A DNA stretch of 64,000 nt, taken from NCBI GenBank assembly GCA_964525295.1, contig CAZGEO010000001.1, positions 9,671-73,670 of the forward strand, written 5' to 3'. Below the pieces are notes generated by a model. The model was not told the origin of the DNA, searched no databases, and was given only the letters and a program-made list of their open reading frames with translations. Source of the DNA: an uncultured Candidatus Saccharibacteria bacterium. Lineage in GTDB: Bacteria > Patescibacteriota > Dojkabacteria > GCA-002793355. Made by a program: the position numbers and the translations under genes. Shown here piece after piece: positions 8,479-52,299 of this stretch (the stretch's first letter is position 1; each line of letters begins with the position of its first letter).

Positions 8479-9150
8479 ATGCGATTAGCACTCTACAGCA
8501 GCGGTTTACATCATGCCGATAAAACTATCGATGAGGCAGTTTGGCAACTTCTTCATAAGCCCACCCACCCACGCCTTTTATTACTCGTAGCTTCGCCAGA
8601 CGCCTTCAATTTCGTTTCCCCAGCTTTTACAAACTATTTACACGACTTCTGTTCACCAGAATATCAAGTCATTTTACCTACTTCTGAAAATCGAGACGCA
8701 ACGATTAACGCAATAGAGCAGAGTGACCTCATTTTTCTTTCAGGCGGAAATACCTACAATTTTCTAAACAATTTGAGAAACCTGCAACTAATTGATGCAG
8801 TAAAGAAGGCAGCACACACAAAAGTTATTGCTGGCTCAAGCGCCGGTGCGATACTTATGACGCCTAGCATAGAAATTGCCGGATATCCCGTTGAAGATGC
8901 AGATTCAAATGATTGCGGTGTGACCGATTTTTCTGCACTTAGTTTGGTTAAATTTGAGATTACTCCCCACTACGTGGCTTCTGAAGCTATAGATAAGCAA
9001 TTTCGCGAATATTCTATGAAGAGTGGCAGGCCTTTGTATGCACTCGCCGATGGAACAGGCATTATTGTTGAGGGCAATAAGGATCAATTATTCGGAAACA
9101 TTTTGATGTTCGACCACGGTGAAAAAATTAAAGTACAATGTTCATTATGA
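8479..9150 (+). CDS. Peptidase S51 family (dipeptidase E / cyanophycinase-like)
   Basis: FLSGGNTYNFL motif and catalytic Ser motif IAGSSAGAIL. Confidence 0.7.
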   Translation: MRLALYSSGLHHADKTIDEAVWQLLHKPTHPRLLLLVASPDAFNFVSPAFTNYLHDFCSPEYQVILPTSENRDATINAIEQSDLIFLSGGNTYNFLNNLRNLQLIDAVKKAAHTKVIAGSSAGAILMTPSIEIAGYPVEDADSNDCGVTDFSALSLVKFEITPHYVASEAIDKQFREYSMKSGRPLYALADGTGIIVEGNKDQLFGNILMFDHGEKIKVQCSL

Positions 9151-13468: not shown

Positions 13469-14956
13469 ATGCAAGAACAATATCTCTATCTTGGTGACAC
13501 AGAAGTTTTTAATGGTCATTATTTGCTCGCCGTTTTCAAATTAGTTCCCTATGGCGACATCACAATCGAAGATGCTGCCTCAGAAGTTGCCGCTGAATCA
13601 TCAACAGGTTCCAATCTAAAAGTCGGCACACGTACCAATTACTCAATGGGTATCGATGCACGAGTCTACAAAATTGATAAAGAAAATCAACTTGCATACA
13701 TCGCGTACCCTTGGTCTATGTTTGATAGGGGAGGAAATGTACAAAATATTTTGACTTTCATTGCCGGTAACGTATTCGGCATGTCAGAATTGAAAGAATG
13801 TAAACTTCTTGATGTTTGGTTTCCATCGCAAATGCTCGATCAATACGACGGCCCAAGCGTAACACTCGATGATATGCGAGAATATCTAAACAATTATGAT
13901 CGTCCTGTATTAGGAACCATTATTAAACCAAAAATTGGCTTAACTTCAACAGAATATGCTGAAGTATGTTACGATTTCTGGGTAGGAGGTGGCGACTTTG
14001 TTAAAAATGACGAACCACAAGCTGACCAAGTTTTCTCTCCTTTTGAAAAAATGGTTGATTCCGTTCGAGAAGCAATGGATAGGGCCGAAGAAGTAACCGG
14101 CCACACGAAAATACACTCGTTTAATGTTTCGGCTGCTGATTTTGACACTATGCTTAAACGAGGTGATTACATTTCATCTGTTATGAAACCTGGAAGTTAC
14201 GCATTCCTTGTTGACGGCATTACCGCTGGCTGGAGTGCTGTACAAACAATTAGACGCCATTTTCCTCATGTATTCTTACATTACCACCGAGCTGGACACG
14301 GAGCATTTACTCGAGCCGAAAATCCAATTGGATACTCGGTACTTGTTCTCTCAAAGTTCGCGCGCTTAGCTGGCGCTTCAGGAATTCATACTGGTACAGC
14401 AGGTATCGGTAAAATGGCAGGAGACGCAAAAGATGACATTACGGCAGCGCACGCAATATTGAAGCTCAAGTCAAAAGGTCATTACTTTGATCAGGTTTGG
14501 TCTGAAATTCCAGAAAACGATTTTGATATTGTTGCTGCAATTGAAAAAGAAGCAGCATTATGGGGTAAAGGTGCCCATGGTATCGCTATGTCACGATTAC
14601 GCGGTCTAGATATGACTATGCAGCGAAAAATGTCTTGGAGAACAATAAATAAAACCGCACCAATTATTTCTGGTGGGTTGAATCCTGTACTTTTGCCAGA
14701 GTTCCTTGATACTATCGGTACAATCGACTTCATAACGACTATGGGTGGTGGTGTACACTCACATCCAAGTGGAACAAAAGCTGGAGCTACCGCTGTCTGC
14801 CAAGCATATGATGCCTGGAAACAGGAAGTAAAACTTGAAGAATATGCAAAAGAACATAAGGAACTTGATGAAGCAATCAAATTCTTCAATAAGCACGGTA
14901 CACAGGCCCACAGAGTAGACAATTCAGAAGTCTATAAGGTTGACAAGCCTGCATAA
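13469..14956 (+). CDS. rbcL: Ribulose-1,5-bisphosphate carboxylase/oxygenase large-subunit homologue (form II/III or III-like)
   Basis: Motifs KPKIGLT, GGGDFVKNDE (Lys/Asp/Glu active site), HYHRAGHGA and SGGLN...GGGVHSHP match the RuBisCO catalytic signature. No small-subunit gene is present. Confidence 0.8.
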   Translation: MQEQYLYLGDTEVFNGHYLLAVFKLVPYGDITIEDAASEVAAESSTGSNLKVGTRTNYSMGIDARVYKIDKENQLAYIAYPWSMFDRGGNVQNILTFIAGNVFGMSELKECKLLDVWFPSQMLDQYDGPSVTLDDMREYLNNYDRPVLGTIIKPKIGLTSTEYAEVCYDFWVGGGDFVKNDEPQADQVFSPFEKMVDSVREAMDRAEEVTGHTKIHSFNVSAADFDTMLKRGDYISSVMKPGSYAFLVDGITAGWSAVQTIRRHFPHVFLHYHRAGHGAFTRAENPIGYSVLVLSKFARLAGASGIHTGTAGIGKMAGDAKDDITAAHAILKLKSKGHYFDQVWSEIPENDFDIVAAIEKEAALWGKGAHGIAMSRLRGLDMTMQRKMSWRTINKTAPIISGGLNPVLLPEFLDTIGTIDFITTMGGGVHSHPSGTKAGATAVCQAYDAWKQEVKLEEYAKEHKELDEAIKFFNKHGTQAHRVDNSEVYKVDKPA

Positions 14957-39988: not shown

Positions 39989-42781
39989 TTACGATCGACT
40001 ATTCATCCTGTACTTATTTCCAACATACAAGGAAATTATACATATAATTATCACAATAAACCATAACCACATATAATTAATCCTTTCACTGTTCGTTTCA
40101 TTTCGGATATCATTAATAATAATTTCATTCACTTTAAGGTTTCTATCAAATTCAAATTCTCCTGTAATGTTGTTGATTATATAGCTAAACTTACCCGAGC
40201 CCCAATGCTGGACAAAAATATATCCCTCTCCATTGGTAGTATAGTACATGTTATTAATTTGAATCTTTGCATCTACAATAGGATTGCCATCGCTATTCTT
40301 AATTAAAATGGCAAAAACTTCTTCCTCGCGATATTCATTATTTCTAATTTCTTCTGTAACTTGTTCTTGCTTGTTATTCTGGTCGAGATCTTGAATACTC
40401 TGACCTTCATCTACAACGAGCTTATAGAGCCACTCTGGAAAATATTCTTCACCAACAATTAATGTTAGTGTTCGTATCGCAGATTGGTTACCAGCTGCAT
40501 CGGTACTAGAATAGGTAATAATATTTTTACCCCTAGCAAGTTTTGGGTTGTTTAAAAGAATTCTAAAGAATCCTGCATTATCAGAGTTCGTAACGTATAG
40601 AACTTCCCCAACTACAAATTTCACTACCGCATTTGCTTCAGTTATCCCCTCAATCATCGGAGTTTGAGAGGTGAAATAGTAAGATAAATTTGCACTATCT
40701 GGCAAATTAGATATTAATCCTAATTTGGTGAGTTTAATTCCAGGTACAGTTTTATCTAAAACTATACTAGCAGAAGAAACTTCCGAGAAATTCGTATATA
40801 AATCTTCATACTTAATATACACAGTCTTTGTTCCATTGCCATCCGAGAGGATAAATTCAGTTGTTTGACTGTATGGTTGCCATGTCGCTCCAGAAAAGCT
40901 TGGGTTTTCTGAAATCATCATTTGTTTGACTGAAGAGAGCGCATCTGACGCCGCAGTTGAAAGCGTAACATTTGAATTGTTTGTGACGATAGCTCCTGAA
41001 TTAATAGCTATGCTTCCAACAGGAATTTCTCGATCATGACGATAAACACGAATACGATCTGCATAACGATCTAAAATATAAATACTACCATCGCTAGCAA
41101 TAGCAAGTGAACTTGGAATGTGAAACTCTGCTATCGAACCCCACACATACAGAAAGTTACCATACTTATCAAACACCTGTATTCTTGAGTTATTAGTATC
41201 TGCTACCCAAATATTATCATCAGCATCACTTGCAACAGAATTTGGCGTATTGAATTGACCAAGCTCTGTTCCTCGTGTACCAAATTTAAATAAGAATTCT
41301 CCAAACTCAGTAAATACCTGAACTCTATGATTAAGTTCATCCGCGACTATAACTCTATTTTGGTTATCAACATCTATACCCCAAGGTCGATTAAATTGTC
41401 CATCGGCAGAACCACTACTTCCAAACTTATATAAAAAATTCCCTTCGAGATCAAACACTTGAACCCGATAGTTTTGATCTTCGATTAAAAATATTTTATT
41501 GTTTTTGATTGCTAGATCTGCTGGATTTTTGAACTGACCATTTTCACTTCCATAAGCACCGAATTTTGATATGAAAGCACCATTTTTATTAAATCTTTGA
41601 ATTCGACTATTTCCAAGATCAATCACATAGATATCACCATTGGCGGGATTAGTTGCAACCCCTACAGGTGTATTCAACTGACCATCACCTGATCCATACC
41701 CACCCAAGACAAGTACCGGGCTATCATTACTATTGTAAATTAATATTCTATGATTGTCGGTATCGACCGCATATACTGTGTTATTTTCATCTACATGAAC
41801 TCTAAGAGCGCCATTAAGCGAATTATCTCTAATAACTGGAATGTTGTTACCGATAAGTAAAATTTGGACATTTGAAGGATTAAATTTATGAATTTGTGCA
41901 TATCTTGATGCGGCAACGTATAAATTACCAGCTGAATCAATCGATGAGCTTAATGGCCCGGCAACACCAGTAACTTTACTTATATAACTTCCAGTTATCG
42001 TAAGTTTCTGGACTCTATTATTACTAATTTCAGATACATAAATATTCCCTAACGAATCAATATTTAGGTCAACCGGTCCGTTGAATTGGCCATCTCCACT
42101 CCCAGTCGAACCGAACTTGGAAAGAAAATTTCCAGCTAAATCAAAAACTTGTACTCTATTATTCGTTCTGTCGGCTACATAGATTTTACTATCAAACACT
42201 TTTATCCCTGTAGGGTAGATAAATTGACCGTCTCCACTCCCAGACTCACCAAAACTCAGTATATATTCACCATTCAAATCTCGAACAAATATTGATGTAT
42301 TCGCGTAATCTGAAATATACATCTTTCCGTCGGAGATCGAAAACCTTATTGGATCTCCTGGGGCTCCATTTATTTTTGTATGATATACAGTTGAAATATA
42401 CTTACCCTGTGTATCGTATTTATAAATTGCTGAATTATGCTTATCAAGTACATAATAATGATCATTGTAATATGAAATGCCACGAATATCACACAGAAAA
42501 TCTATGCTTTGTTGATCAGGAGTATCAAAGACAAATAAAAAATTACCATTACTGTCAAATTTTTGTACATTCCATTGAGCGATATCTGCTGTAACAAAAT
42601 TATCATTTTCAACAACAGTAATACTAGATAAGTATGCAAATATTCCATTACCTCTATTAGATACAATCGTTTTTTGGTAAAGAGGAATATCATTTTGAGT
42701 CCAAGCATCTACTTTATTTGATAAACTAAAGTAACAAATTACTCCTAGAAACAAACTAAAGATTAGAAGCCGTCTGCGCAA
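39989..42781 (-). CDS. Large NHL-repeat beta-propeller surface protein (930 aa) with C-terminal TM anchor
   Basis: Signal peptide, then at least 12 NHL-type repeats (NNRVQVFD, NHRVQVF, NSRIQVFD, SGDGQF...), and a C-terminal hydrophobic helix YMWLWFIVIIICIISLYV. Confidence 0.8.
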   Translation of the reverse strand: MRRRLLIFSLFLGVICYFSLSNKVDAWTQNDIPLYQKTIVSNRGNGIFAYLSSITVVENDNFVTADIAQWNVQKFDSNGNFLFVFDTPDQQSIDFLCDIRGISYYNDHYYVLDKHNSAIYKYDTQGKYISTVYHTKINGAPGDPIRFSISDGKMYISDYANTSIFVRDLNGEYILSFGESGSGDGQFIYPTGIKVFDSKIYVADRTNNRVQVFDLAGNFLSKFGSTGSGDGQFNGPVDLNIDSLGNIYVSEISNNRVQKLTITGSYISKVTGVAGPLSSSIDSAGNLYVAASRYAQIHKFNPSNVQILLIGNNIPVIRDNSLNGALRVHVDENNTVYAVDTDNHRILIYNSNDSPVLVLGGYGSGDGQLNTPVGVATNPANGDIYVIDLGNSRIQRFNKNGAFISKFGAYGSENGQFKNPADLAIKNNKIFLIEDQNYRVQVFDLEGNFLYKFGSSGSADGQFNRPWGIDVDNQNRVIVADELNHRVQVFTEFGEFLFKFGTRGTELGQFNTPNSVASDADDNIWVADTNNSRIQVFDKYGNFLYVWGSIAEFHIPSSLAIASDGSIYILDRYADRIRVYRHDREIPVGSIAINSGAIVTNNSNVTLSTAASDALSSVKQMMISENPSFSGATWQPYSQTTEFILSDGNGTKTVYIKYEDLYTNFSEVSSASIVLDKTVPGIKLTKLGLISNLPDSANLSYYFTSQTPMIEGITEANAVVKFVVGEVLYVTNSDNAGFFRILLNNPKLARGKNIITYSSTDAAGNQSAIRTLTLIVGEEYFPEWLYKLVVDEGQSIQDLDQNNKQEQVTEEIRNNEYREEEVFAILIKNSDGNPIVDAKIQINNMYYTTNGEGYIFVQHWGSGKFSYIINNITGEFEFDRNLKVNEIIINDIRNETNSERINYMWLWFIVIIICIISLYVGNKYRMNSRS

Positions 42782-42953: not shown

Positions 42954-43083
42954 GAGCGGGTGACGAGATTTGTATTCGAACTTCGTCTTCAGTATCAATT
43001 CGATCTACAACTCACCCTCACATTCATTCCACTCATTGGATCTCATTGTCGAACTTTCGTTCTCATCTCGTACATAGCAAAAG
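42954..43083. repeat. R1 repeat copy A: degenerate tRNA-Gly 3'-end fragment plus conserved 33-bp core
   Basis: gcgggtgacgagattt matches the 3' end of the tRNA-Gly at 52227. The core cattgtcgaactttcgttctcatctcgtacata (43044-43076) is identical to 51272-51304. Confidence 0.7.
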
Positions 43084-43572: not shown

Positions 43573-43680
43573 CTTACTTGTATTGTCCGAACCACAATAA
43601 TTTTGTCTCTCAATTCCTGATGTGCTCGTTTTATTGTTATTTCTAAGACTATCAAGTGTTTTTGTACATCGTTTGCGATA

Positions 43681-43737
43681 TATCGTCTAAGATGTATATG
43701 AGCGGGGCACTAGATGAAGTCCGAACCGCACTTAGTA
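43681..43737. repeat. Repeat copy B: duplicate of the tRNA-Gly downstream flank (R3) plus R2 module
   Basis: tatcgtctaagatgtatatgagcggg matches tatcgtctacgatgtatataagcggg at 52207. agcggggcactagatgaagtccgaaccgcacttagta matches 51351-51387. Confidence 0.7.
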
Positions 43738-44005: not shown

Positions 44006-44563
44006 CTACTTAAATAACGAAGTTACACTTTCTAATTCGCTTACACCTATGACAACATTGCTCCCATTAACCTTTTCGTTTGCATTAATTGGGTATGGGT
44101 TGCAGTCTGGTTTTTCAATAGCAAAATCTTCAACAGAATAACTCTTTTCACAAACTGTACAAATAAGTTTGTTTCCTTCTTGCACATAACCTTTCCCATA
44201 CTTTGCACACTGTTTATTTCCATTAGCTGCAACTCTAAATTTACCTTCAGCATCTTTTAAGACCATAAAATAGACTGTTGTTCCATCAGGTAAAGTTGCA
44301 TTAAAGAACTTTACTTTGTTCACCTCAAATCCAACAGTAGGGATCGAAACATTTCCATCAACCACTTGAAGCGTCTCACCCTTATTTCCTGTAAATACAT
44401 ACGCTTCAGTTTCTTCTGCTGTATTTGTTGGCGTTGCATTTGATGTTGGCTGAGCTTGGATTGTTAAATTGTCAGACTTTGGCTTATTATTCAATGAATA
44501 GAAAACTAAACCACCAACAACAATTGCTACAATGATCAAACCTCCTAATACTTCTTTTTTCAT
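44006..44563 (-). CDS. Membrane-anchored Cys-motif protein, possible metal-binding
   Basis: N-terminal TM, a Thr/Pro-rich linker, and the C-terminal Cys pattern CAKYGKGY...CTVCEKSY...C. It is the last gene of the copper operon. Confidence 0.45.
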   Translation of the reverse strand: MKKEVLGGLIIVAIVVGGLVFYSLNNKPKSDNLTIQAQPTSNATPTNTAEETEAYVFTGNKGETLQVVDGNVSIPTVGFEVNKVKFFNATLPDGTTVYFMVLKDAEGKFRVAANGNKQCAKYGKGYVQEGNKLICTVCEKSYSVEDFAIEKPDCNPYPINANEKVNGSNVVIGVSELESVTSLFK

Positions 44564-44582
44564 ACATTAATTATTTAAGAAA

Positions 44583-46895
44583 TTAAATCTTTACAAACTT
44601 CAATCTTAGTGAATTTGTAACAACTGAAACACTACTAAATGCCATTGCTAAACCTGCAAATACTGGATTTAATAGAATTCCCCAAATTGGAAAGAGTAAT
44701 CCAGCCGCTAACGGAATACCAACAACATTGTAGATAAATGCCCAAAAGAGATTCTGTTTGATTGTAGCCATTGTTTTCTTTGACAACTTGATAGCTTGTG
44801 GAATCTTTGAAATATCTCCTGCAAGTAATGTTATATCTGCGGATTCAATTGCAACATCCGTACCTGTTCCCATCGCAATTCCTACGTCAGATTGAGCAAG
44901 TGCAGGTGCATCATTTACACCGTCTCCTGCCATTGCAACTACTAAACCTTCTGCTTGTAATTCACGAACCTTGTCTGCTTTTTCACTTGGCAATACTTCT
45001 GCAAAGACTTTATCAATGCCAACCAAATCTGCTATGTATTTAGCCGTATTTCGATTATCACCTGTAAGCATTACGACTTTAACACCAAGCTTATGTAATC
45101 TTGCAACTGCATCGGCACTTGATTCTTTAATTGTGTCTGAAATTGCAATTGTTGCTAAAACCTCTTTGTCATCAGTGAAGAGTACTGGCGTTTTGCCTTG
45201 TTTCGACAATTTATCAATTAGATCCTTATCGTAATCAAGCTTTAAATCGTCCATAAGTTTCAGATTTCCTGCAAAGTACATCTTTCCATCAATAGTACCT
45301 TTCAATCCTTTACCTTCAATGATCTCGAAATCATCAACTTTTACAAGTTGAACATCCATAGATTTTGCCTTTTCCTTGATTGCCTCAGCTAATGGATGCT
45401 CCGAGTTCTTTTCTAAAGAAGCTATTAATTTTAGTATTTCAACTCCATCAATAGACTCATTTGCATATGAAGGAAGGATATCTGTAACTTCAGGCTTACC
45501 TTTTGTAATTGTTCCTGTTTTGTCAACAACAATGGTATTAACTTTGTGTAACTTTTCTAAGCTTTCAGCATTTTTAATGAGAATACCGTTTTGAGCTCCT
45601 TTACCAACACCAACAATGATTGCTGTAGGAGTAGCAAGTCCTAAAGCACATGGACAAGCAATCACCAAAATCCCAACAAAGCAGAGTAATCCGTAAGTAA
45701 GTGCTTCATTAAATGGCATAAATTGACTTCCAACTGCCAACCATATTATCAACGTTAAAACAGCAATGACAAGCACAACCGGAACAAATACTCCTGAAAT
45801 TTGATCTGCTAACTTTTGTATTGGTGCTCGTGATCCTTGTGCTTCTTCTACCATTTTAATAATACTTGCTAAAAGAGTATCTGAACCAACTTTCGTAGCA
45901 TTAAACTTGAATGTACCTTGCTTATTTATTGTTCCTCCAATAACTTTGTCTTCAACTGTTTTATCAACTGGAATTGGCTCGCCAGTTACCATAGATTCAT
46001 CAATTGAAGATTTACCTTCGATAATAACACCATCTACAGGAATTTTACCTCCTGGTTTAACAATGACAACATCGTCAAGTTGCACCATATCAATTGCTAT
46101 TTCAATTTCTTCTCCATTTCTTTCAACTAATGCTGTCTTTGCTTGAAGATTCATTAACTTTTCTATTGCTTCTCCTGTTTTGAGCTTTGATCGTGCTTCT
46201 AGATATTTACCGAAGACAATAAAGCCAATAACAACGATTGCGACATCAAAGTAATTTGTTTCAGGAAGTCCTGCTGAATGTGCAATATTAGGGAATAAAA
46301 CAACAAATGAACTATAGAGATATGCCGTTAATGTACCAATTCCAATCAAAGTGTCCATATTGGCAACTTTATATTGAATAAAGTTTACTATGCCCTTTAA
46401 AAAAGGTTGTCCAATCCAAAACAGCACTACGGAAGAAATAATCATCATCATTGTAGAGTACAGTTGCATTGGGAGAAAGAATGCTGGAACGACATTTGGG
46501 AATGATTTTGCACTAATTTCCCACATCATTAATACAAAGATCATCAATGCAATCGGGAGGACAAATTCAACTTCAGATTTTTGTTTATCCAACTCCTTAA
46601 GTTTTTCTTGCTTGCTTTTATCAAGTCCTAAGTGTTCTGCATGTTCATTTGCTGACATATTTCCATGACTCATTGGCATTGCAACTTCATTTTGCAATTC
46701 ATAGCCAAATGGTTTTATTCTTTCGCTCATTTGGTCTATTGATGTTGCAGTTTTATCAAACTCAATAGTAGCTTTCTCTGTGCCATAATTCACTTTAATT
46801 GAGTCAACTCCATTTACTTTGGAAATTGCTTTCTCAATGGTTAATGCACAACTTGCACAGTGCATTCCCTTAATAGGTATTGTTATTTTTTCCAT
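44583..46895 (-). CDS. copA: Copper-translocating P1B-type ATPase
   Basis: N-terminal [17 protein letters not shown], the CPC motif in [18 protein letters not shown] and [10 protein letters not shown]. Confidence 0.92.
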
Positions 46896-46919
46896 TGTTT
46901 TTATATGATAGTAGGTTAA

Positions 46920-47480
46920 TTATTTGACTTCGTACCAATCAGTTCTCATTTGACTTAATTTGATCTTACCTTTGTGTAAGAAGTCTTCGACTGCGTTTGC
47001 ATTGTTCAAGATTTCATTTCTTGTTGATTTTTTTTGAATCTCCATAGTCATTTCAATTCCTGATTCGTGATGGGTAATGAGTGCATTTAAAAATCTCCAA
47101 TCCAACTTTTCATCATACGTACCTAAATTTGGAACTTCCATTGAAGCGACTTCTTTTGTATCGTTATACCAATCCTTCTTCCATTGATATAATTCAGCAA
47201 TTGCTTTTGGTTCATCTGTTAAGATCATATTTGCAAGATCTTTAATATCCTGTCTCCGAGATTCATTTTTAACCTGTTCTGCTAGTTTCATTGCACCTTT
47301 ATGATGTGCAATCATGGCATTTATGTATCGTAAATCAACATATTTATCTGCTTTACCTAAATCTACCATTTGTTTGCTTTCGTATTGATCCATTGAATAC
47401 TGGGGTGACACGACATAGCCGAGACCAGTTCCAAGTACAAAGAAAATAATGACGAGCGAAATTGTTATATATTTTGACAT
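46920..47480 (-). CDS. DUF305-family protein (copper-resistance associated)
   Basis: N-terminal TM and two repeats carrying HH motifs (MIAHHKGAM and LITHHESGI). Confidence 0.7.
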   Translation of the reverse strand: MSKYITISLVIIFFVLGTGLGYVVSPQYSMDQYESKQMVDLGKADKYVDLRYINAMIAHHKGAMKLAEQVKNESRRQDIKDLANMILTDEPKAIAELYQWKKDWYNDTKEVASMEVPNLGTYDEKLDWRFLNALITHHESGIEMTMEIQKKSTRNEILNNANAVEDFLHKGKIKLSQMRTDWYEVK

Positions 47481-47498
47481 AGTTATTTGAAGTAAAAA

Positions 47499-47723
47499 TT
47501 AAGCAATAATGTTAAGATTAGAGTATTTATAGTCTGTTAACTCTTTAAATACTTCTTGAAGATCTTTTTCAACTTCCTCAGTATTTTTAGAAGTCACAAA
47601 GGTAGCAACATTTTTTTCAGAATCAACAGAAACTTCTTCTAGCCCAATATCTTCTAATGACATGGTTATTAAGTTTTTGCATCCTGAACAGTGCATTCCT
47701 GAAATATCTATTTGGTATTTCAT
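47499..47723 (-). CDS. copZ: Copper chaperone (HMA domain, CopZ-like)
   Basis: 74 aa with GMHCSGC. Confidence 0.85.
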   Translation of the reverse strand: MKYQIDISGMHCSGCKNLITMSLEDIGLEEVSVDSEKNVATFVTSKNTEEVEKDLQEVFKELTDYKYSNLNIIA

Positions 47724-47732
47724 ATTTAAATA

Positions 47733-48155
47733 TTAATTAAAATTAATTACAAAACTATACATTCCCATACTACAAGAACCTCTTAAGCTGGTACCTGCAT
47801 TTTGAGAAGTAATTTCAATATCAGTATTACCACTTGCAGGTAATGTCTTTGAAATTCCTAAACTTAGGATTCTAAATGCTCTTTCGCAACCGTAAACACC
47901 ATCTGATTTCATACGAATAATTGTTGGAACACCTGCTTTGGCGTTAATTGTACGAGGTGAATAGCCACCACTAACTGTAACTTCAATAATTTGTTTATCT
48001 CCTGAAGTGCTGACGACATTTGAACTTGCACCTTTTACATCAGCTGAACGATTATTCCCAGAACCAACGAGAAAGACAAATCCAATCATAACAATTACGG
48101 CAATTCCAATCAATAAACCTTTACCGTCAACAGTTATAGTTCTAACTTCTTGCAT
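47733..48155 (-). CDS. Membrane-anchored His-less cupredoxin-like domain protein
   Basis: N-terminal TM followed by SGGYSPRTI...GC...SCSMGMY, paralogous to the C-terminal domain of the upstream HMA-permease (SGYSPNTI...GC...SCWMGMV). It resembles the cupredoxin_1 YyC..pgH..GMkG pattern with the His segment deleted. Confidence 0.5.
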   Translation of the reverse strand: MQEVRTITVDGKGLLIGIAVIVMIGFVFLVGSGNNRSADVKGASSNVVSTSGDKQIIEVTVSGGYSPRTINAKAGVPTIIRMKSDGVYGCERAFRILSLGISKTLPASGNTDIEITSQNAGTSLRGSCSMGMYSFVINFN

Positions 48156-48193
48156 ATACGTGGTTTGTTTTAATATTATATATTTCCAAAACT

Positions 48194-49660
48194 TTATTCC
48201 ACAACCTCAATAATTCCAGTTACCATTCCCATCCAACAGCTAAATCTATATTTCCCGACTTTTGTTGGAGTAAACTCTTTAACTGCTACTTTTCCAGTTT
48301 CAAGATCTATCTGACCATCAAAAAGACCTTTTGAGATAATGGCATTTGTACAGCCTGAAGTCCCAGTATCATTAATTTCCCATCGAACAGGGACATTCAC
48401 TCTTACTTTGATAGTATTAGGTGAGTAACCTGAAGCACTTGCCTCCATTTTTACAATTTGTTTTCCATTAACAATTTCGGGAAGAGTGCTATTTGAAGAT
48501 CCAGTGTTATTACTCTGGTTTACGCTGCTTTGTCCAAAACTAATGTCATTTAAATTTGGTAGTCCGAGTGCAATAAGTTGCATGTTGACTGTTGATAGTC
48601 CAAAGAGTATGACGAGAATACCAACTAACTTCATGAAATTTTCAGCAACATGTGCTTTTTCATACATCTTTGTGCTAGACATTCCAATGAATAAAAGCAT
48701 GGGAGAAGTTCCTAATGCAAACAATGACATTATTAAAGCTCCACGAATAGGATCTCCTGATACCATGGCTAACCCCTGAGCTGTAATGGTGAATCCACAA
48801 GGAAGAAAGAATGTAAGTGCCCCCATAATCATAGGCATGTATTTGCCTGCAAAATTTGATTCATCAGCAATATACCTTGAAAATACTTTTGGCATTCTAA
48901 ATTGAAATCTTTGAAAAGCCTTAATACCAAGCATTTGTAAACCTAACAACACCATCATAATTGAAACGAGAATTGCGACAAGAGCCGTAAATAATGGAGA
49001 AATGGTAAATATACTTCCAATTGCACCTAAAACACCTCCAAGTATTGCGAATGAAACAATTCTTCCGATGTTAAACAATAGATGTGGTTGTAATTTCTCT
49101 GAAAAAGAATTACTTGTTGAATGTAACTCATACCACTGCTTTGACATTGACAAAACAATTCCCCCAACAAGAGCCGCACAACTCGAAAACCCTGCTACAA
49201 TGCCAAAAAAGAAAAACGCAGGTAAGGCAGAGGTTGCATTAACAGAGACAGCAGAAGCTAAACCAAATCGTTCAAATAGTTTATAGATTAAGAAAATACC
49301 TGCAACTCCAATTATAATAAAAAGGATTGAGTTGATTTTGCGTGTGCTAAAAGTTAACTTACCATTTTCAATTTGAAACAATTTTTCAACATCCTCTTGA
49401 ACTTGGTCTTCAGTGCCAGTTTCGTCAAAGCTATATCCTTCAGTTTTAAACAATTTATTCAATAGTTCTAAAGTGGGCTTCTCTCCTTTATATTCTATTT
49501 TTACCTTGTTGTCTGAAGTAGAAGCATCTACACCTTCAATGTTATTTTGTTTTATAAGTTTTTTTTCAATGAGGACTTCACAACTTGCACAATGCATTCC
49601 CTTTACTGAGTAACTGCATTCTTTTAGTTGAGGCTCTGATTTTTTCGATTTACTTTTCAT
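48194..49660 (-). CDS. HMA-domain::polytopic permease (TauE/SafE- or CcdA-like, paired Cys)::cupredoxin-like domain fusion protein
   Basis: N-terminal GMHCASCEVLIEKKL, a membrane core with AGFSSCAALVGG and FFLPCGFT, and a C-terminal FSCWMGMVTGIIEVVE module. Confidence 0.6.
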   Translation of the reverse strand: MKSKSKKSEPQLKECSYSVKGMHCASCEVLIEKKLIKQNNIEGVDASTSDNKVKIEYKGEKPTLELLNKLFKTEGYSFDETGTEDQVQEDVEKLFQIENGKLTFSTRKINSILFIIIGVAGIFLIYKLFERFGLASAVSVNATSALPAFFFFGIVAGFSSCAALVGGIVLSMSKQWYELHSTSNSFSEKLQPHLLFNIGRIVSFAILGGVLGAIGSIFTISPLFTALVAILVSIMMVLLGLQMLGIKAFQRFQFRMPKVFSRYIADESNFAGKYMPMIMGALTFFLPCGFTITAQGLAMVSGDPIRGALIMSLFALGTSPMLLFIGMSSTKMYEKAHVAENFMKLVGILVILFGLSTVNMQLIALGLPNLNDISFGQSSVNQSNNTGSSNSTLPEIVNGKQIVKMEASASGYSPNTIKVRVNVPVRWEINDTGTSGCTNAIISKGLFDGQIDLETGKVAVKEFTPTKVGKYRFSCWMGMVTGIIEVVE

Positions 49661-49680
49661 TCATAGTTCATAACAAATTA

Positions 49681-49702
49681 GGCTACTACAAGTGTAGTAG
49701 CC
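49681..49702. promoter_or_regulatory. Cop box operator: perfect 22-bp palindrome containing TACAAGTGTA
   Basis: GGCTACTACAAGTGTAGTAGCC overlaps a predicted minus-strand promoter (-35 TTGACA at 49714-49719, -10 TACACT at 49691-49696). It lies about 21 bp upstream of the HMA-permease start. Confidence 0.7.
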
Positions 49703-49731
49703 TAACGATTAAATGTCAAGTATTTTTGGAA

Positions 49732-50685
49732 TTAATTTGATGGACAAGAAGTTGGAGTGTCCATAGAATGCACAGAGCACAGATTTTCTGAAGAATTACT
49801 TTGGAGATTATTAACAAATATTTGAATACAATCTTCGATATGTTCACAGTTATAAAATTTCACCGTATATACGAAAACAGGTAAGCTGACCAAGGCAAAC
49901 AAAAAGAATGATGATAAAGTAGTAACTAGTTTAAAGTTAAATTTCTTTGCTCCAACTAATACAGGTATTCTTTCGGGCATATTACTAAAATGTGCTAAAT
50001 TTGGTTGCATGGTCATGGAAAAGTCATTACTCAGAATCGAGTATAAGGCTTCAATAATAGGTCTTTTCTTTCCTAATATGTTTTCTGAGTGTTCATCACT
50101 TTTTAATTCAACAGATGTGAAGTAAATATCTTTCAGCTTGTTCTTAAAAGGAAACTGAGGAAGTATATTATTAATGAGTTGTACAATAAATCCTCTCAAA
50201 GGATCATGATCTTTGCAATGCGAAAATTCATGATGCAAAACCGCCTTCAACTGTTCAGAAGTTAATGAACTCTTTAGTTTTGAGGAAATATATACTTTCG
50301 GTGTAAAGAATCCTGCTGTAAAGACAGAAGTTTCCTTCGAATCTAAAGTGATAACAGCTTTATTAGACTTACTGTTTAAAGAATTCAAAAACTTTTGGGA
50401 GAAAAATAATTGTTTAAGTGAGACTAAAATTCCCTTTAATGCAATAAATAATAGACTCAATGAAAGTAATCCAAATAGGACAGATTGAATAAAAGCTTCA
50501 CTAAAAATAATTGAAGTAATTTCAGAACGATTTTTTATAACTCCGTCTATAAGAAAGAGTGTTTGCATAAAAAATCCTGGTAAAGCTCGTACAGAGAGAA
50601 GGGTTAATAGAGTAACGTAGGCAAAACTAGAAATAACATAAATTGCAAAAAGACGATTTGTTTGGCTACTATAAATTTTATTCAT
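49732..50685 (-). CDS. M56-family (BlaR1-like) membrane metalloprotease lacking a penicillin-sensor domain
   Basis: Four N-terminal TM helices and HEFSHCKDHD (HExxH). It is 317 aa, whereas BlaR1 is about 585 aa. It overlaps the upstream repressor gene by 8 bp. Confidence 0.7.
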   Translation of the reverse strand: MNKIYSSQTNRLFAIYVISSFAYVTLLTLLSVRALPGFFMQTLFLIDGVIKNRSEITSIIFSEAFIQSVLFGLLSLSLLFIALKGILVSLKQLFFSQKFLNSLNSKSNKAVITLDSKETSVFTAGFFTPKVYISSKLKSSLTSEQLKAVLHHEFSHCKDHDPLRGFIVQLINNILPQFPFKNKLKDIYFTSVELKSDEHSENILGKKRPIIEALYSILSNDFSMTMQPNLAHFSNMPERIPVLVGAKKFNFKLVTTLSSFFLFALVSLPVFVYTVKFYNCEHIEDCIQIFVNNLQSNSSENLCSVHSMDTPTSCPSN

Positions 50686-51043
50686 TTTTATTTAAAAAGT
50701 CTTTGAGAAGTTTAGCATTTTTGCTATCACTTTTCACAGAGTCAATAAACTGCGAAATTGCTAACTCTCCATATGTATCTACCAACGAATTAAAAATTCC
50801 ACCTAAATGTTTACCAGCAAATTCTTCCTTACACTCAGTATATGTATATACATACGAATTACCGTCTGGAATTCTTTTAAGAATACCTTTTTTCTCCATT
50901 CTAGTCATTACAGTCATTACGGTGGTGTATGCTGACTTTTCTTTTAACTGTTCGAGTACAGACCTAACATTCATGGGCTCTTTTGAAGCCCAAATGATTG
51001 ATAATATTTCTTGTTCGAGGTCACCAAGCACTAAAGATTTCAT
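50678..51043 (-). CDS. copY: BlaI/MecI/CopY-family winged-helix transcriptional repressor
   Basis: LGDLEQEILSIIWASKEPMNVRSVLEQL...YTTVMTVMTRMEKKGIL matches the penicillinase-repressor family. The start was moved to MKSLV because the operator lies inside the longer ORF. It has no C-terminal CxCxxxxCxC. Confidence 0.75.
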   Translation of the reverse strand: MKSLVLGDLEQEILSIIWASKEPMNVRSVLEQLKEKSAYTTVMTVMTRMEKKGILKRIPDGNSYVYTYTECKEEFAGKHLGGIFNSLVDTYGELAISQFIDSVKSDSKNAKLLKDFLNKNE

Positions 51044-51068
51044 ATTTTTAATCACTATAAAACAACTA

Positions 51069-51080
51069 CTACAAGTGTAG
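51069..51080. promoter_or_regulatory. Cop box operator (CTACAAGTGTAG palindrome) upstream of the repressor gene
   Basis: Shares the TACAAGTGTA core with the 49681 palindrome. It lies about 26 bp upstream of the repressor ATG. Confidence 0.65.
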
Positions 51081-51190
51081 CACAAAATTGGAGCTATGCC
51101 AATTATTGACACAATAAAAATATGGGAAGATATATATCAGGCGATTTATAAAGATAATTCGAATACTTCATTATCGTAAACGATATATAT

Positions 51191-51387
51191 GAGCGGGCGA
51201 CGAGATTTACCCACAGGGCATCAATTCAGTTTACGAATCACTTCCTCAATACTTCGTCGTTCTTCGGACTTCATTGTCGAACTTTCGTTCTCATCTCGTA
51301 CATAACAAAAGAGGGCTGCTATCCACCTTTCAGGTGAACACCAGCCCTCAAGCGGGGCACTGGAGGAAGTCCGAACCGCACTTAGTA
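51191..51387. repeat. Repeat copy C: 15-nt copy of the tRNA-Gly 3' end, then R1 with 33-bp core, then R2 module
   Basis: gagcgggcgacgagatt matches tRNA-Gly 3' end plus flank. Core at 51272-51304, and R2 agcggggcactggaggaagtccgaaccgcacttagta at 51351-51387. Confidence 0.7.
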
Positions 51388-51445
51388 ATGGTACACTTAT
51401 TTATACAAAAGATCGGTACTTTCCACAATTTAATTTAAAGTAAAG

Positions 51446-52054
51446 TTAATCTATCCAATTTGGGTTCGATGTTATGTAGTTTGAAAAAATGTGTGAATAC
51501 GTCTCTGAGTCGTATTCTTTTCTAAACTTGTCAATTATAGTAGTTAATTCTTGTTTAAAAAATGCGGGACTTATTAGCACCTGCCAATCCCCTTGTTCAA
51601 GCAATGTATTTAGGATTTCTTTATAAGTACCGGAAATATTACTTTCTTTATGAGTTTCTAATTTACCTGAGTCAATAGACCAAAACTGGTAGTGGTTAAT
51701 AAATCTTGCTTCATAGGAAGTAAGAAACCAATTTTTTGACTTCTGATTATCAGAAAATGAGGTTGTAAATTCTCTATACGTCCATAGAAAACCATATTTG
51801 AAGTCTTCTGCAGTTAATATACTTTCCTTAAATGAAGGTATTCCCCAAGATTCACAATTTTCTATAAAAATATCATTTCCATCCTTACCATTACACTGAT
51901 CTTCGATAAACTGAGCTCTTTTTTTTGCTGAATCATAAGGTAAAGACCTTAAATATTCAGTAATCTTGAGATATTTTGCAAGAGTATCAGTATGCTTAAC
52001 GGTTCTCGATTCCAATAAATCTTCAATTTCGGGGATTGTACTTAAATCTAACAT
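51446..52054 (-). CDS. Hypothetical protein
   Basis: 202-aa ORF between repeat copy C and tRNA-Gly. Confidence 0.4.
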   Translation of the reverse strand: MLDLSTIPEIEDLLESRTVKHTDTLAKYLKITEYLRSLPYDSAKKRAQFIEDQCNGKDGNDIFIENCESWGIPSFKESILTAEDFKYGFLWTYREFTTSFSDNQKSKNWFLTSYEARFINHYQFWSIDSGKLETHKESNISGTYKEILNTLLEQGDWQVLISPAFFKQELTTIIDKFRKEYDSETYSHIFSNYITSNPNWID

Positions 52055-52226
52055 TCATATTTCAGTTTAAATTGATATTCTATTTTACACTTTACAAAGA
52101 TATTTGGGAAATTGAATGAAAAACAATAGAGAAATAGTTGTCAAGTATTAAAAAGAGAACTATTGTTAATTGTGACTTTTTAAAAGAAATTTATTGTCTG
52201 AGATATATCGTCTACGATGTATATAA

Positions 52227-52299
52227 GCGGGCGACGAGATTCGAACTCGCGATCTTCTGTTTGGAAAACAGACATTCTAGCCGCTGAACTACGCCCGCA
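52227..52299 (-). tRNA. tRNA-Gly (anticodon UCC)
   Basis: Minus-strand cloverleaf: acceptor GCGGGCG/CGCCCGC, anticodon stem TCTGT/ACAGA with loop TTTCCAA, T-arm GCGAGTTCGAATCTCGT, discriminator U. Confidence 0.88.

Follow-up and report, generated by a model that had tools for sequence, protein, structure and literature searches.

A 64,000-nt window of an uncultured Dojkabacteria-like Patescibacteria genome (the whole stretch of DNA analysed, to which coordinates refer unless a related locus is named) contains a copper gene cluster headed by a repressor gene of the BlaI/MecI/CopY family and an overlapping gene for a membrane zinc protease. The original prediction for this DNA had described an operon of eight co-directional genes led by a BlaI/CopY-family repressor, and both parts of that description hold. 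All eight open reading frames (ORFs) lie on the minus strand and run in one direction within 44006-51043, with gaps of 9-71 nt and an 8-nt overlap (ATGAATAA) between the first two, and domain assignments from Pfam and NCBIfam searches support a copper operon under such a repressor. From the first gene to the last, the cluster contains:

50678-51043, minus strand: winged-helix repressor of the BlaI/MecI/CopY family, 121 aa, without a Cys tail (Pfam PF03965 Penicillinase_R, 6.7e-23, residues 6-118)
49732-50685, minus strand: short M48/M56 (BlaR1-like) membrane zinc protease, 317 aa (M48, 34 bits; HEFSH motif)
48194-49660, minus strand: fusion of HMA, DsbD_2 (a CcdA-like membrane domain) and Cupredoxin_1, 488 aa (Pfam)
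47733-48155, minus strand: membrane-anchored Cupredoxin_1-like protein, 140 aa (Pfam)
47499-47723, minus strand: CopZ-like HMA metallochaperone, 74 aa, with GMHCSGC (Pfam and NCBIfam)
46920-47480, minus strand: DUF305/CopM-like protein, 186 aa (Pfam PF03713, 5.8e-19; NCBIfam CopM domain, 45 bits, the cutoff of 90 not being reached)
44583-46895, minus strand: CopA, 770 aa, a Cu(I)-exporting ATPase of the P1B-1 class (609 bits with TIGR01511, whose cutoff is 397)
44006-44563, minus strand: FtrD-like (PF10080) Cys-motif membrane protein, 185 aa, the final gene of the cluster (Pfam)

This gene content is established directly. In particular, CopA contains CPC, N-x6-YN-x4-P and M-x2-SS-x5-N, which we take to be the Cu(I) signatures of P1B-1 ATPases. 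The product of the final gene, earlier described only as a Cys-motif protein, does have its Cys motif and is now identified as a PF10080 FtrD-like protein, whose gene occupies the same position in the related loci L005 and L006. The HMA-DsbD_2-Cupredoxin_1 fusion gene also lies 3′ of homologous regulator pairs in L005 and L014; in L016, two such fusion genes occupy the other strand, upstream of the pair. By protease identity, the nearest genomes are a Candidatus Dojkabacteria metagenome-assembled genome (90%) and Patescibacteria BroJett019 (81%), and a scan of genome contigs with alignment A1 retrieved 4 close loci only. Searches of the window by tblastn found no CsoR gene, DsbA-like gene, multicopper oxidase or second BlaI/M56 pair.

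Operators and promoter-like sites

Two CTACAAGTGTAG operators are present, each on the -10 hexamer of a promoter-like site. The sequence TACAAGTGTA occurs at 49687-49696 and 51070-51079, and both operators have the same reading on the operon strand. The sites are:

51069-51080, minus strand: operator O1, CTACACTTGTAG on the operon strand, overlapping the -10 hexamer of P1 (read from the sequence; invariant TGCTACACTTGTAGTAGTT footprint in 4 orthologous loci)
51074-51102, minus strand: promoter-like site P1, with -35 TTGGCA (51102-51097), a 17-nt spacer and TG-extended -10 TACACT (51079-51074); a consensus match only
49678-49705, minus strand: operator O2, a palindrome with 13-bp arms, TTAGGCTACTACACTTGTAGTAGCCTAA, which may double as the terminator hairpin of the P1 transcript
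49691-49719, minus strand: promoter-like site P2, with -35 TTGACA (49719-49714), a 17-nt spacer and -10 TACACT (49696-49691) in the left half of O2

The two cop boxes and the 22-bp palindrome at 49681-49702 of the original prediction are thus real, and the palindrome extends to 13-bp arms. The operators had been placed exactly over the spacers between the -10 and -35 hexamers; their overlap with the promoter-like sites stands, but they reach beyond the spacer onto the -10 hexamer TACACT. As this hexamer lies inside each operator, a bound dimer would occlude both the -10 hexamer and the transcription start. The box, named there after CopY, does not mark a CopY, because MecI/BlaI and CopY have it as a common operator (PMC11672702).

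The conservation and position of the operators are direct observations. The DNA upstream of the repressor gene, at P1, is highly divergent among the four orthologous loci apart from the invariant TGCTACACTTGTAGTAGTT, and the P2 -35 hexamer TTGACA is invariant in the 4 orthologs. The same -35/-10 geometry is found at P1, at P2 and at a site that follows the protease gene of the distant locus L001. Within the window, the count of the 10-mer TACANNTGTA is not significant (3 sites versus 1.19 expected; 9 of 100 shuffles reach 3), and the longer motif CTACA-N2-3-TGTAG was therefore used across the window and 13 related loci (272 kb in total). Here, 22 exact sites occur versus 0.63 expected, with a maximum of 3 in 200 shuffles. 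Nearly all of them lie in one of two places, no more than ~40 bp ahead of the repressor start codon or between the end of the protease gene and the next gene, and the two loci from candidate phyla radiation (CPR) bacteria that lack an exact operator have one-mismatch versions in the same places. The operator spacer is 2 nt long in the Dojkabacteria clade and 3 nt long in distant systems, whose proteases are only ~20-30% identical; the cyanobacterial locus L019 has no CTACA-N2-3-TGTAG site, exact or one-mismatch.

Further operator copies are found downstream in some orthologs. L005 has a third operator (14399-14410) ahead of its cupredoxin gene and downstream of two inserted unrelated genes, while L007 and L008 each have a third copy farther downstream. 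The insertion in L005 (12621-14386), also seen in L006 (3138-4903), consists of bPH_2/AlbA_2 and DUF2085 genes between the HMA-DsbD_2-cupredoxin and cupredoxin genes.

The repressor-protease pair and its family

Translation of the repressor starts at the ATG at 51043, giving 121 aa. An earlier start at a GTG (51112), the limit given in the original prediction, is rejected because the orthologous upstream regions, upstream of the shared ATGAAATCT, contain indels that are not multiples of three, and because MKSLVLGDLE is where the family alignment begins. Among solved structures, the closest relative is Mycobacterium tuberculosis Rv1846c BlaI (2G9W, 1.2e-10), and the repressor's ratio of nonsynonymous to synonymous substitution rates (dN/dS) of 0.01-0.05 indicates purifying selection. 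As had been noted before, the CxCxxxxCxC motif is absent: the C-terminus (...LLKDFLNKNE) has neither CxCx4CxC nor CxC, the sole Cys, that of YTECKEEF, gives way to Asp in the orthologs of L005 and L008, and the repressor alignment (A3) has no conserved Cys or His. The best NCBIfam match, TIGR02698 CopY_TcrY, scores 42.6 bits and does not reach its cutoff of 121.95. The scissile residues N101 and F102 of BlaI/MecI align to Q98 and F99, so that the Phe of the N-F cleavage site raised in the original prediction is present and its Asn is not; this Phe is kept by at least 90% of the repressors in the alignment, with a variable residue before it.

The protease combines a BlaR1-type zinc site with an unusual C-terminus, encoded as follows:

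50218-50232, minus strand: codons for the zinc-binding motif H152-E-F-S-H156 (read from the sequence; invariant in alignment A2)
49735-49860, minus strand: codons for the Cys/His-rich tail, residues 276-317, with C280-E-H282-IED-C286, then C304-x-H306, then C314

Across 117 diverse protease relatives (alignment A2), residues H152, E153, H156, E193, D197 and R239 are the same in every sequence and represent the HExxH, ExxxD and Arg elements reported for active sites of the BlaR1 type. The catalytic residues are thus intact, and as judged from the sequence so is the gene: the protease is full length relative to its orthologs and has a dN/dS of 0.06-0.17. These values rule out the pseudogene possibility that had been attached to the earlier claim of an overlapping M56 protease with HExxH, a claim that is otherwise confirmed. 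An exhaustive HMMER search returned 106 representatives of 50%-identity clusters at E < 1e-30, a number that rises to 2061 at E < 1e-10; the best 150 matches are mostly 300-350 aa long.

An AlphaFold2 model of the protease (pLDDT 82.6, pTM 0.78) places helices at residues 251-278, the last membrane helix, and at 283-295. Beyond the last membrane helix, the protein has a 42-residue tail (NCEHIEDC...LCSVH...SC) with a CxHxxxC motif. Conservation of the tail cysteines is observed directly: C280 is present in 114 of the 117 relatives, C286 in 111, and at least three tail Cys in 105. Moreover, Cys makes up 7.7% of tail residues versus 0.86% elsewhere, a 9-fold enrichment, and a tail dN/dS of ~0.05 indicates purifying selection. 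Since the repressor is cytoplasmic, the catalytic domain must lie on that side of the membrane; the tail, one helix away, is predicted to be extracytoplasmic, which by analogy would be the position where BlaR1 has its sensor domain. The original prediction called the protease sensor-less; it does lack a penicillin-binding domain (Pfam and NCBIfam searches find no transpeptidase domain in it, and the protein continues for just 42 residues after the last membrane helix), but the conserved Cys/His-rich tail makes the term inapt. The H-x3-C spacing of the tail presumably resembles the Cu(I) site of CsoR, a resemblance that offers a lead and not a test.

Ten distinct homolog neighbourhoods were examined, drawn from diverse contigs encoding family members. 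A Penicillinase_R gene lies immediately 5′ of the protease gene in 10 of 10 contexts, overlapping it in all but L012 (7-nt gap), and all 10 have an exact or one-mismatch CTACA-N2-3-TGTAG operator. The association with copper or thiol chemistry is recurrent: copper genes are present in 6 of the 10 contexts (CopA-type ATPase, multicopper oxidase, DsbD_2-cupredoxin, HMA, DUF305, YHS or CsoR), and other metal or thiol-redox genes in a further 3. Several contexts adjoin CopA, DUF305, YHS or CsoR clusters, one adjoins a mer operon, and thioredoxin, AhpC and DsbD genes lie near the pair in L013, L015 and L018. In six distant, Patescibacteria-type loci, the protease gene is directly followed by a gene for a DsbA-like thioredoxin-fold protein and by unknown ORFs. 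The coordinates of these DsbA-like modules are:

L001, 11070-14428
L011, 9064-12784
L014, 8882-12145
L015, 9083-10612
L016, 9092-12289
L018, 9006-11511

Two of these six loci continue with a multicopper oxidase gene (L001 and L016) and one with DsbD_2-cupredoxin and HMA genes. The two ORFs after the DsbA-like gene in L001, and a 554-aa ORF farther downstream in L011, have no Pfam match; ORFs following the DsbA-like genes may encode new copper- or thiol-handling proteins.

The family is broad and previously undescribed, and is seen here in Patescibacteria and in metagenome contigs. In L001, L002, L003, L016 and L017, genes for Replic_Relax (relaxase-like), DUF87/TrwB-like (coupling-protein-like), type IV secretion system pilin and resolvase proteins lie nearby. 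These apparently conjugative or integrative elements with metal-resistance genes suggest horizontal spread of the module among CPR bacteria.

The proposed switch and its alternatives

We consider it probable that a proteolytic derepression switch of the BlaI/BlaR1 type, similar to PetR/PetP, heads this copper-detoxification operon on an islet next to tRNA-Gly. A BlaI/BlaR1-style derepression circuit had been proposed before and, with two operators and an intact overlapping protease, it remains the best reading of the locus. In the circuit that we infer, the dimeric winged-helix repressor would bind two CTACA-NN-TGTAG operators, O1 and O2, blocking its own repressor-protease transcript (from P1) and the six-gene copper operon (from P2). 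The membrane protease would hold its zinc active site in the cytoplasm and expose its 42-residue Cys/His-rich tail on the outer face, and it would be switched on by Cu(I) outside the cytoplasm or by an oxidation of its tail thiols that copper drives. The activated protease would then cut the repressor, probably in the helix aligned with the BlaI/MecI N-F site (Q98-F99 here), and repressor cleavage would open P1 and P2. A further proposal is more tentative, though possible: the tail (CxHxxxC plus one or two further Cys) may be a sensor module of a new, minimal kind with which BlaR-type proteases detect extracytoplasmic Cu(I) or copper/thiol signals. It may mark out a widespread patescibacterial family of one-step transmembrane copper sensors, carried on mobile metal-resistance islands with a conserved CTACA-N2-3-TGTAG operator, and an efflux-regulator class apart from CueR, CsoR, CopY and CusRS/CopRS.

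Several observations weigh against the proposed switch. The Pfam M56 score of the protease is 25.7 bits, below the gathering score; its global superposition on BlaR1 is poor (Foldseek TM 0.34-0.46), so that no claim is made of the same overall helix arrangement; and a sequence-profile search of the Protein Data Bank gave no BlaR1 match at E ≤ 1, returning only selecase and HtpX fragments (E ~1e-3). The relation of the protease to BlaR1 is drawn from fold searches and motifs. On the repressor side, the aligned sequences vary at the position of the Asn in the BlaI N-F site. The promoter-like sites are matches to consensus only, and their count in the region is not above that of shuffles. The tail is modelled at low confidence (pLDDT 41-66), and its cysteines could be structural disulfides, or redox rather than copper sensors. 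Further, L012 has no metal genes nearby, making it the one context of ten with neither copper genes nor other metal or thiol-redox genes, and a separate CsoR gene lies beside copA in L014 and L017, where the pair may control only the DsbA-like module; copper is thus not proven as the signal of the family.

In another reading, the same proteolytic switch would respond to extracytoplasmic thiol-disulfide or envelope stress through oxidation of the tail cysteines, the copper genes being one of several cargoes. A DsbA-like gene is the first after the protease gene in the six loci listed above, thioredoxin, AhpC and DsbD genes lie near three of the pairs, L014 and L017 have their separate CsoR gene, and cues other than beta-lactams act on BlaIR-like systems that have no sensor domain, CenIR among them. 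We nevertheless regard a signal other than copper as unlikely, because the regulated genes in the window and its orthologs are all copper-handling (CopA, CopZ, cupredoxins and DUF305/CopM-like proteins), multicopper oxidases are part of the downstream operon in L001 and L016, and tblastn found no other copper regulator in the window. The copper and thiol readings overlap, since copper stress is mechanistically tied to thiol oxidation.

The O2 palindrome has a second potential function. As RNA, it folds into a hairpin of 13-bp stem and 4-nt loop (-19.8 kcal/mol, z -5.3) with UUUGUUAU after it, and is flagged as terminator-like. Among the O2 sites compared (49678-49705 in the window, 8980-9009 in both L007 and L008, and ~10984-11007 in L005), the core is the same throughout, with outer arms that covary as GGC/GCC, AGT/ACT, AGC/GCT and AAC/GTT. 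The compensatory outer arms, the hairpin energy and the U-rich tail together suggest a combined operator and terminator, and O2 probably ends P1 transcripts, which would uncouple a low level of the regulators from a high level of operon expression. P2 transcripts would start inside O2 and escape termination. The same hairpin and covariation could be taken to mean that O2 is an intrinsic terminator only, closing the repressor-protease unit and leaving the copper genes constitutive or under an unseen regulator. We find this improbable: the CTACA..TGTAG core recurs ahead of the repressor gene, at a place with no transcript to terminate; further copies precede the cupredoxin gene in L005 and lie farther downstream in L007 and L008; an invariant TTGACA is positioned 17 nt upstream of the TACACT within O2; and the hairpin and operator roles are mutually compatible. 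Direct sensing as in CopY, in which the repressor would bind Cu(I), perhaps delivered by CopZ, and leave the DNA while the protease is an accessory or an unrelated housekeeping enzyme, accords with the CopY-type operator, the copZ gene in the operon and CopY_TcrY as the best (though far sub-cutoff) NCBIfam match, but is very improbable for a repressor with neither CxCx4CxC nor CxC, no conserved Cys or His and a lone Cys that is Asp in two orthologs, and whose gene is directly followed at every locus examined by that of a protease under purifying selection.

The architecture was earlier said to match no described system, yet PetR/PetP of Synechocystis sp. PCC 6803 matches it: there, the gene for a BlaI/CopY-family factor that lacks the Cys motif overlaps the next gene, which encodes an M48/M56 protease with no sensor domain (Garcia-Canas et al. 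2021; bioRxiv 10.1101/2020.07.31.226407). Degradation of PetR requires PetP and copper, and two Met in the TM2-TM3 loop are the proposed PetP copper ligands (bioRxiv 10.1101/2020.07.31.226407). The window pair shares with PetR/PetP the repressor without a CopY Cys motif, the overlapping ~300-aa M48/M56 membrane protease without a penicillin-binding domain, and the link to copper. It differs in regulon, as PetRP controls petE/petJ (copper use) while the window regulon serves copper export and handling; in operator, which is GACN5GTC for PetRP and CTACA-NN-TGTAG here; and in mode of action, as PetR also activates transcription, unlike the window repressor as modelled. In the first extracytoplasmic loop of the window protease (~residues 34-62) there is one Met, M40, which is kept in 53 of the 117 relatives. 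The Anthocerotibacter protein P0224, taken as a PetRP relative and an unverified proxy for it, is 23% identical to the window protease over the protease domain (E 2e-11; family profile 8.8e-14) and, unlike it, has no Cys-rich tail. In locus L019 of the same genus (Anthocerotibacter panamensis CP062698.1, 5576-6843), a BlaI-like/M56-like pair, presumably a PetRP relative, adjoins a divergent TonB-dependent receptor gene; the L019 repressor ends in RCAEEPPCT, with two Cys, unlike the CPR repressors.

The pair has similarities to three other groups of systems. With BlaI/BlaR1 and MecI/MecR1 of Staphylococcus aureus and Bacillus licheniformis, it shares the repressor fold, the TACA/TGTA operator, an autoregulated gene pair, the HExxH and ExxxD zinc site with its stabilising Arg on a multi-pass membrane scaffold, and the scissile-site Phe. 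Unlike BlaR1/MecR1, its protease has the 42-residue Cys/His tail in place of a C-terminal penicillin-binding sensor domain; unlike BlaI/MecI, its repressor has Q-F in place of N-F, and its targets are copper genes rather than beta-lactamase or PBP2a. Sequence similarity to BlaR1 is marginal (blaR1_generic, 18.9 bits). With CopY/TcrY/CopR of Enterococcus, Streptococcus and Lactococcus, it shares the repressor family, the TACAnnTGTA cop box and control of a copA-copZ operon together with its own gene. In contrast to these, the window repressor has no C-terminal CxCx4CxC (or CxC) Cu(I)/Zn(II) site (as defined in PMC11672702), and it has a protease partner, which CopY systems do not. Finally, M. 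tuberculosis Rv1846c/Rv1845c, Clostridioides difficile CenIR and Pseudomonas aeruginosa PvmSR likewise combine a BlaI-like repressor with an M56 protease that has no transpeptidase domain, but their regulons concern the cell envelope, virulence or ATP synthase, with no reported metal link. A 2023 survey noted BlaR-type homologs in heterotrophs, their role being unknown, and a literature search of incomplete coverage found no report of such a pair before a copper-export operon, of the Cys-rich tail, or of the family in Patescibacteria.

Overall, the locus is best read as a new form of a known kind of system, a BlaIR/PetRP-type proteolytic switch, set apart by its own conserved tail, a regulon of copper export and handling, and its own family. 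The known controllers of copper export are CueR, CsoR, CopY and two-component systems. A protease-gated BlaI-type repressor before copA would join them as another mechanism, and would carry the PetRP paradigm over from cyanobacterial copper use to the detoxification of copper in Patescibacteria. The family also bears on how BlaR-type proteases that have no penicillin-binding domain, such as PetP, CenR and M. tuberculosis BlaR, perceive their signals: it supplies a small, strongly conserved and mutable candidate sensor with two near-invariant Cys just beyond the last membrane helix. Its clear operator and compact promoters would allow the circuit to be reconstructed in E. coli or B. subtilis. 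In addition, the family is a marker of mobile metal-resistance islands in uncultured bacteria of groundwater and wastewater.

The putative tRNA-Gly islet and its surroundings

The operon lies between copies of a repeat of the tRNA-Gly 3′ end, an arrangement that suggests an inserted islet. The features that delimit it are:

43668-43715, plus strand: degenerate repeat copy containing the tRNA-Gly 3′ end; left islet boundary
51159-51206, plus strand: repeat copy containing the tRNA-Gly 3′ end, with AGCGGGCGACGAGATT identical to the tRNA end; right islet boundary
52226-52298, minus strand: tRNA-Gly(TCC)

In full, the direct repeat has three copies (43668-43715, 51159-51206 and 52193-52240), comprising the last ~15 nt of tRNA-Gly(TCC) and ~30 nt downstream, and it brackets both the copper operon and a second, one-gene segment (51207-52225). 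This pattern resembles that of islets inserted in tandem at the tRNA-Gly 3′ end; no integrase gene is visible near them. Two further exact repeats, each of two copies and found nowhere else in the window, flank the operon: one of 33 nt (43044-43076, identical to 51272-51304) and one of 22 nt (43716-43737, identical to 51366-51387). Their order differs between the two sides, and a DUF4304 gene lies between the left pair. A small RNA (an RNase P-like element) was considered for the repeated flanks and rejected, as Rfam gave no match at gathering scores or at E ≤ 1. Just past the islet, the minus-strand gene at 39989-42781 encodes a 930-aa protein with an NHL-repeat beta-propeller, Ig-like domains and a C-terminal membrane anchor, which is probably a surface protein.

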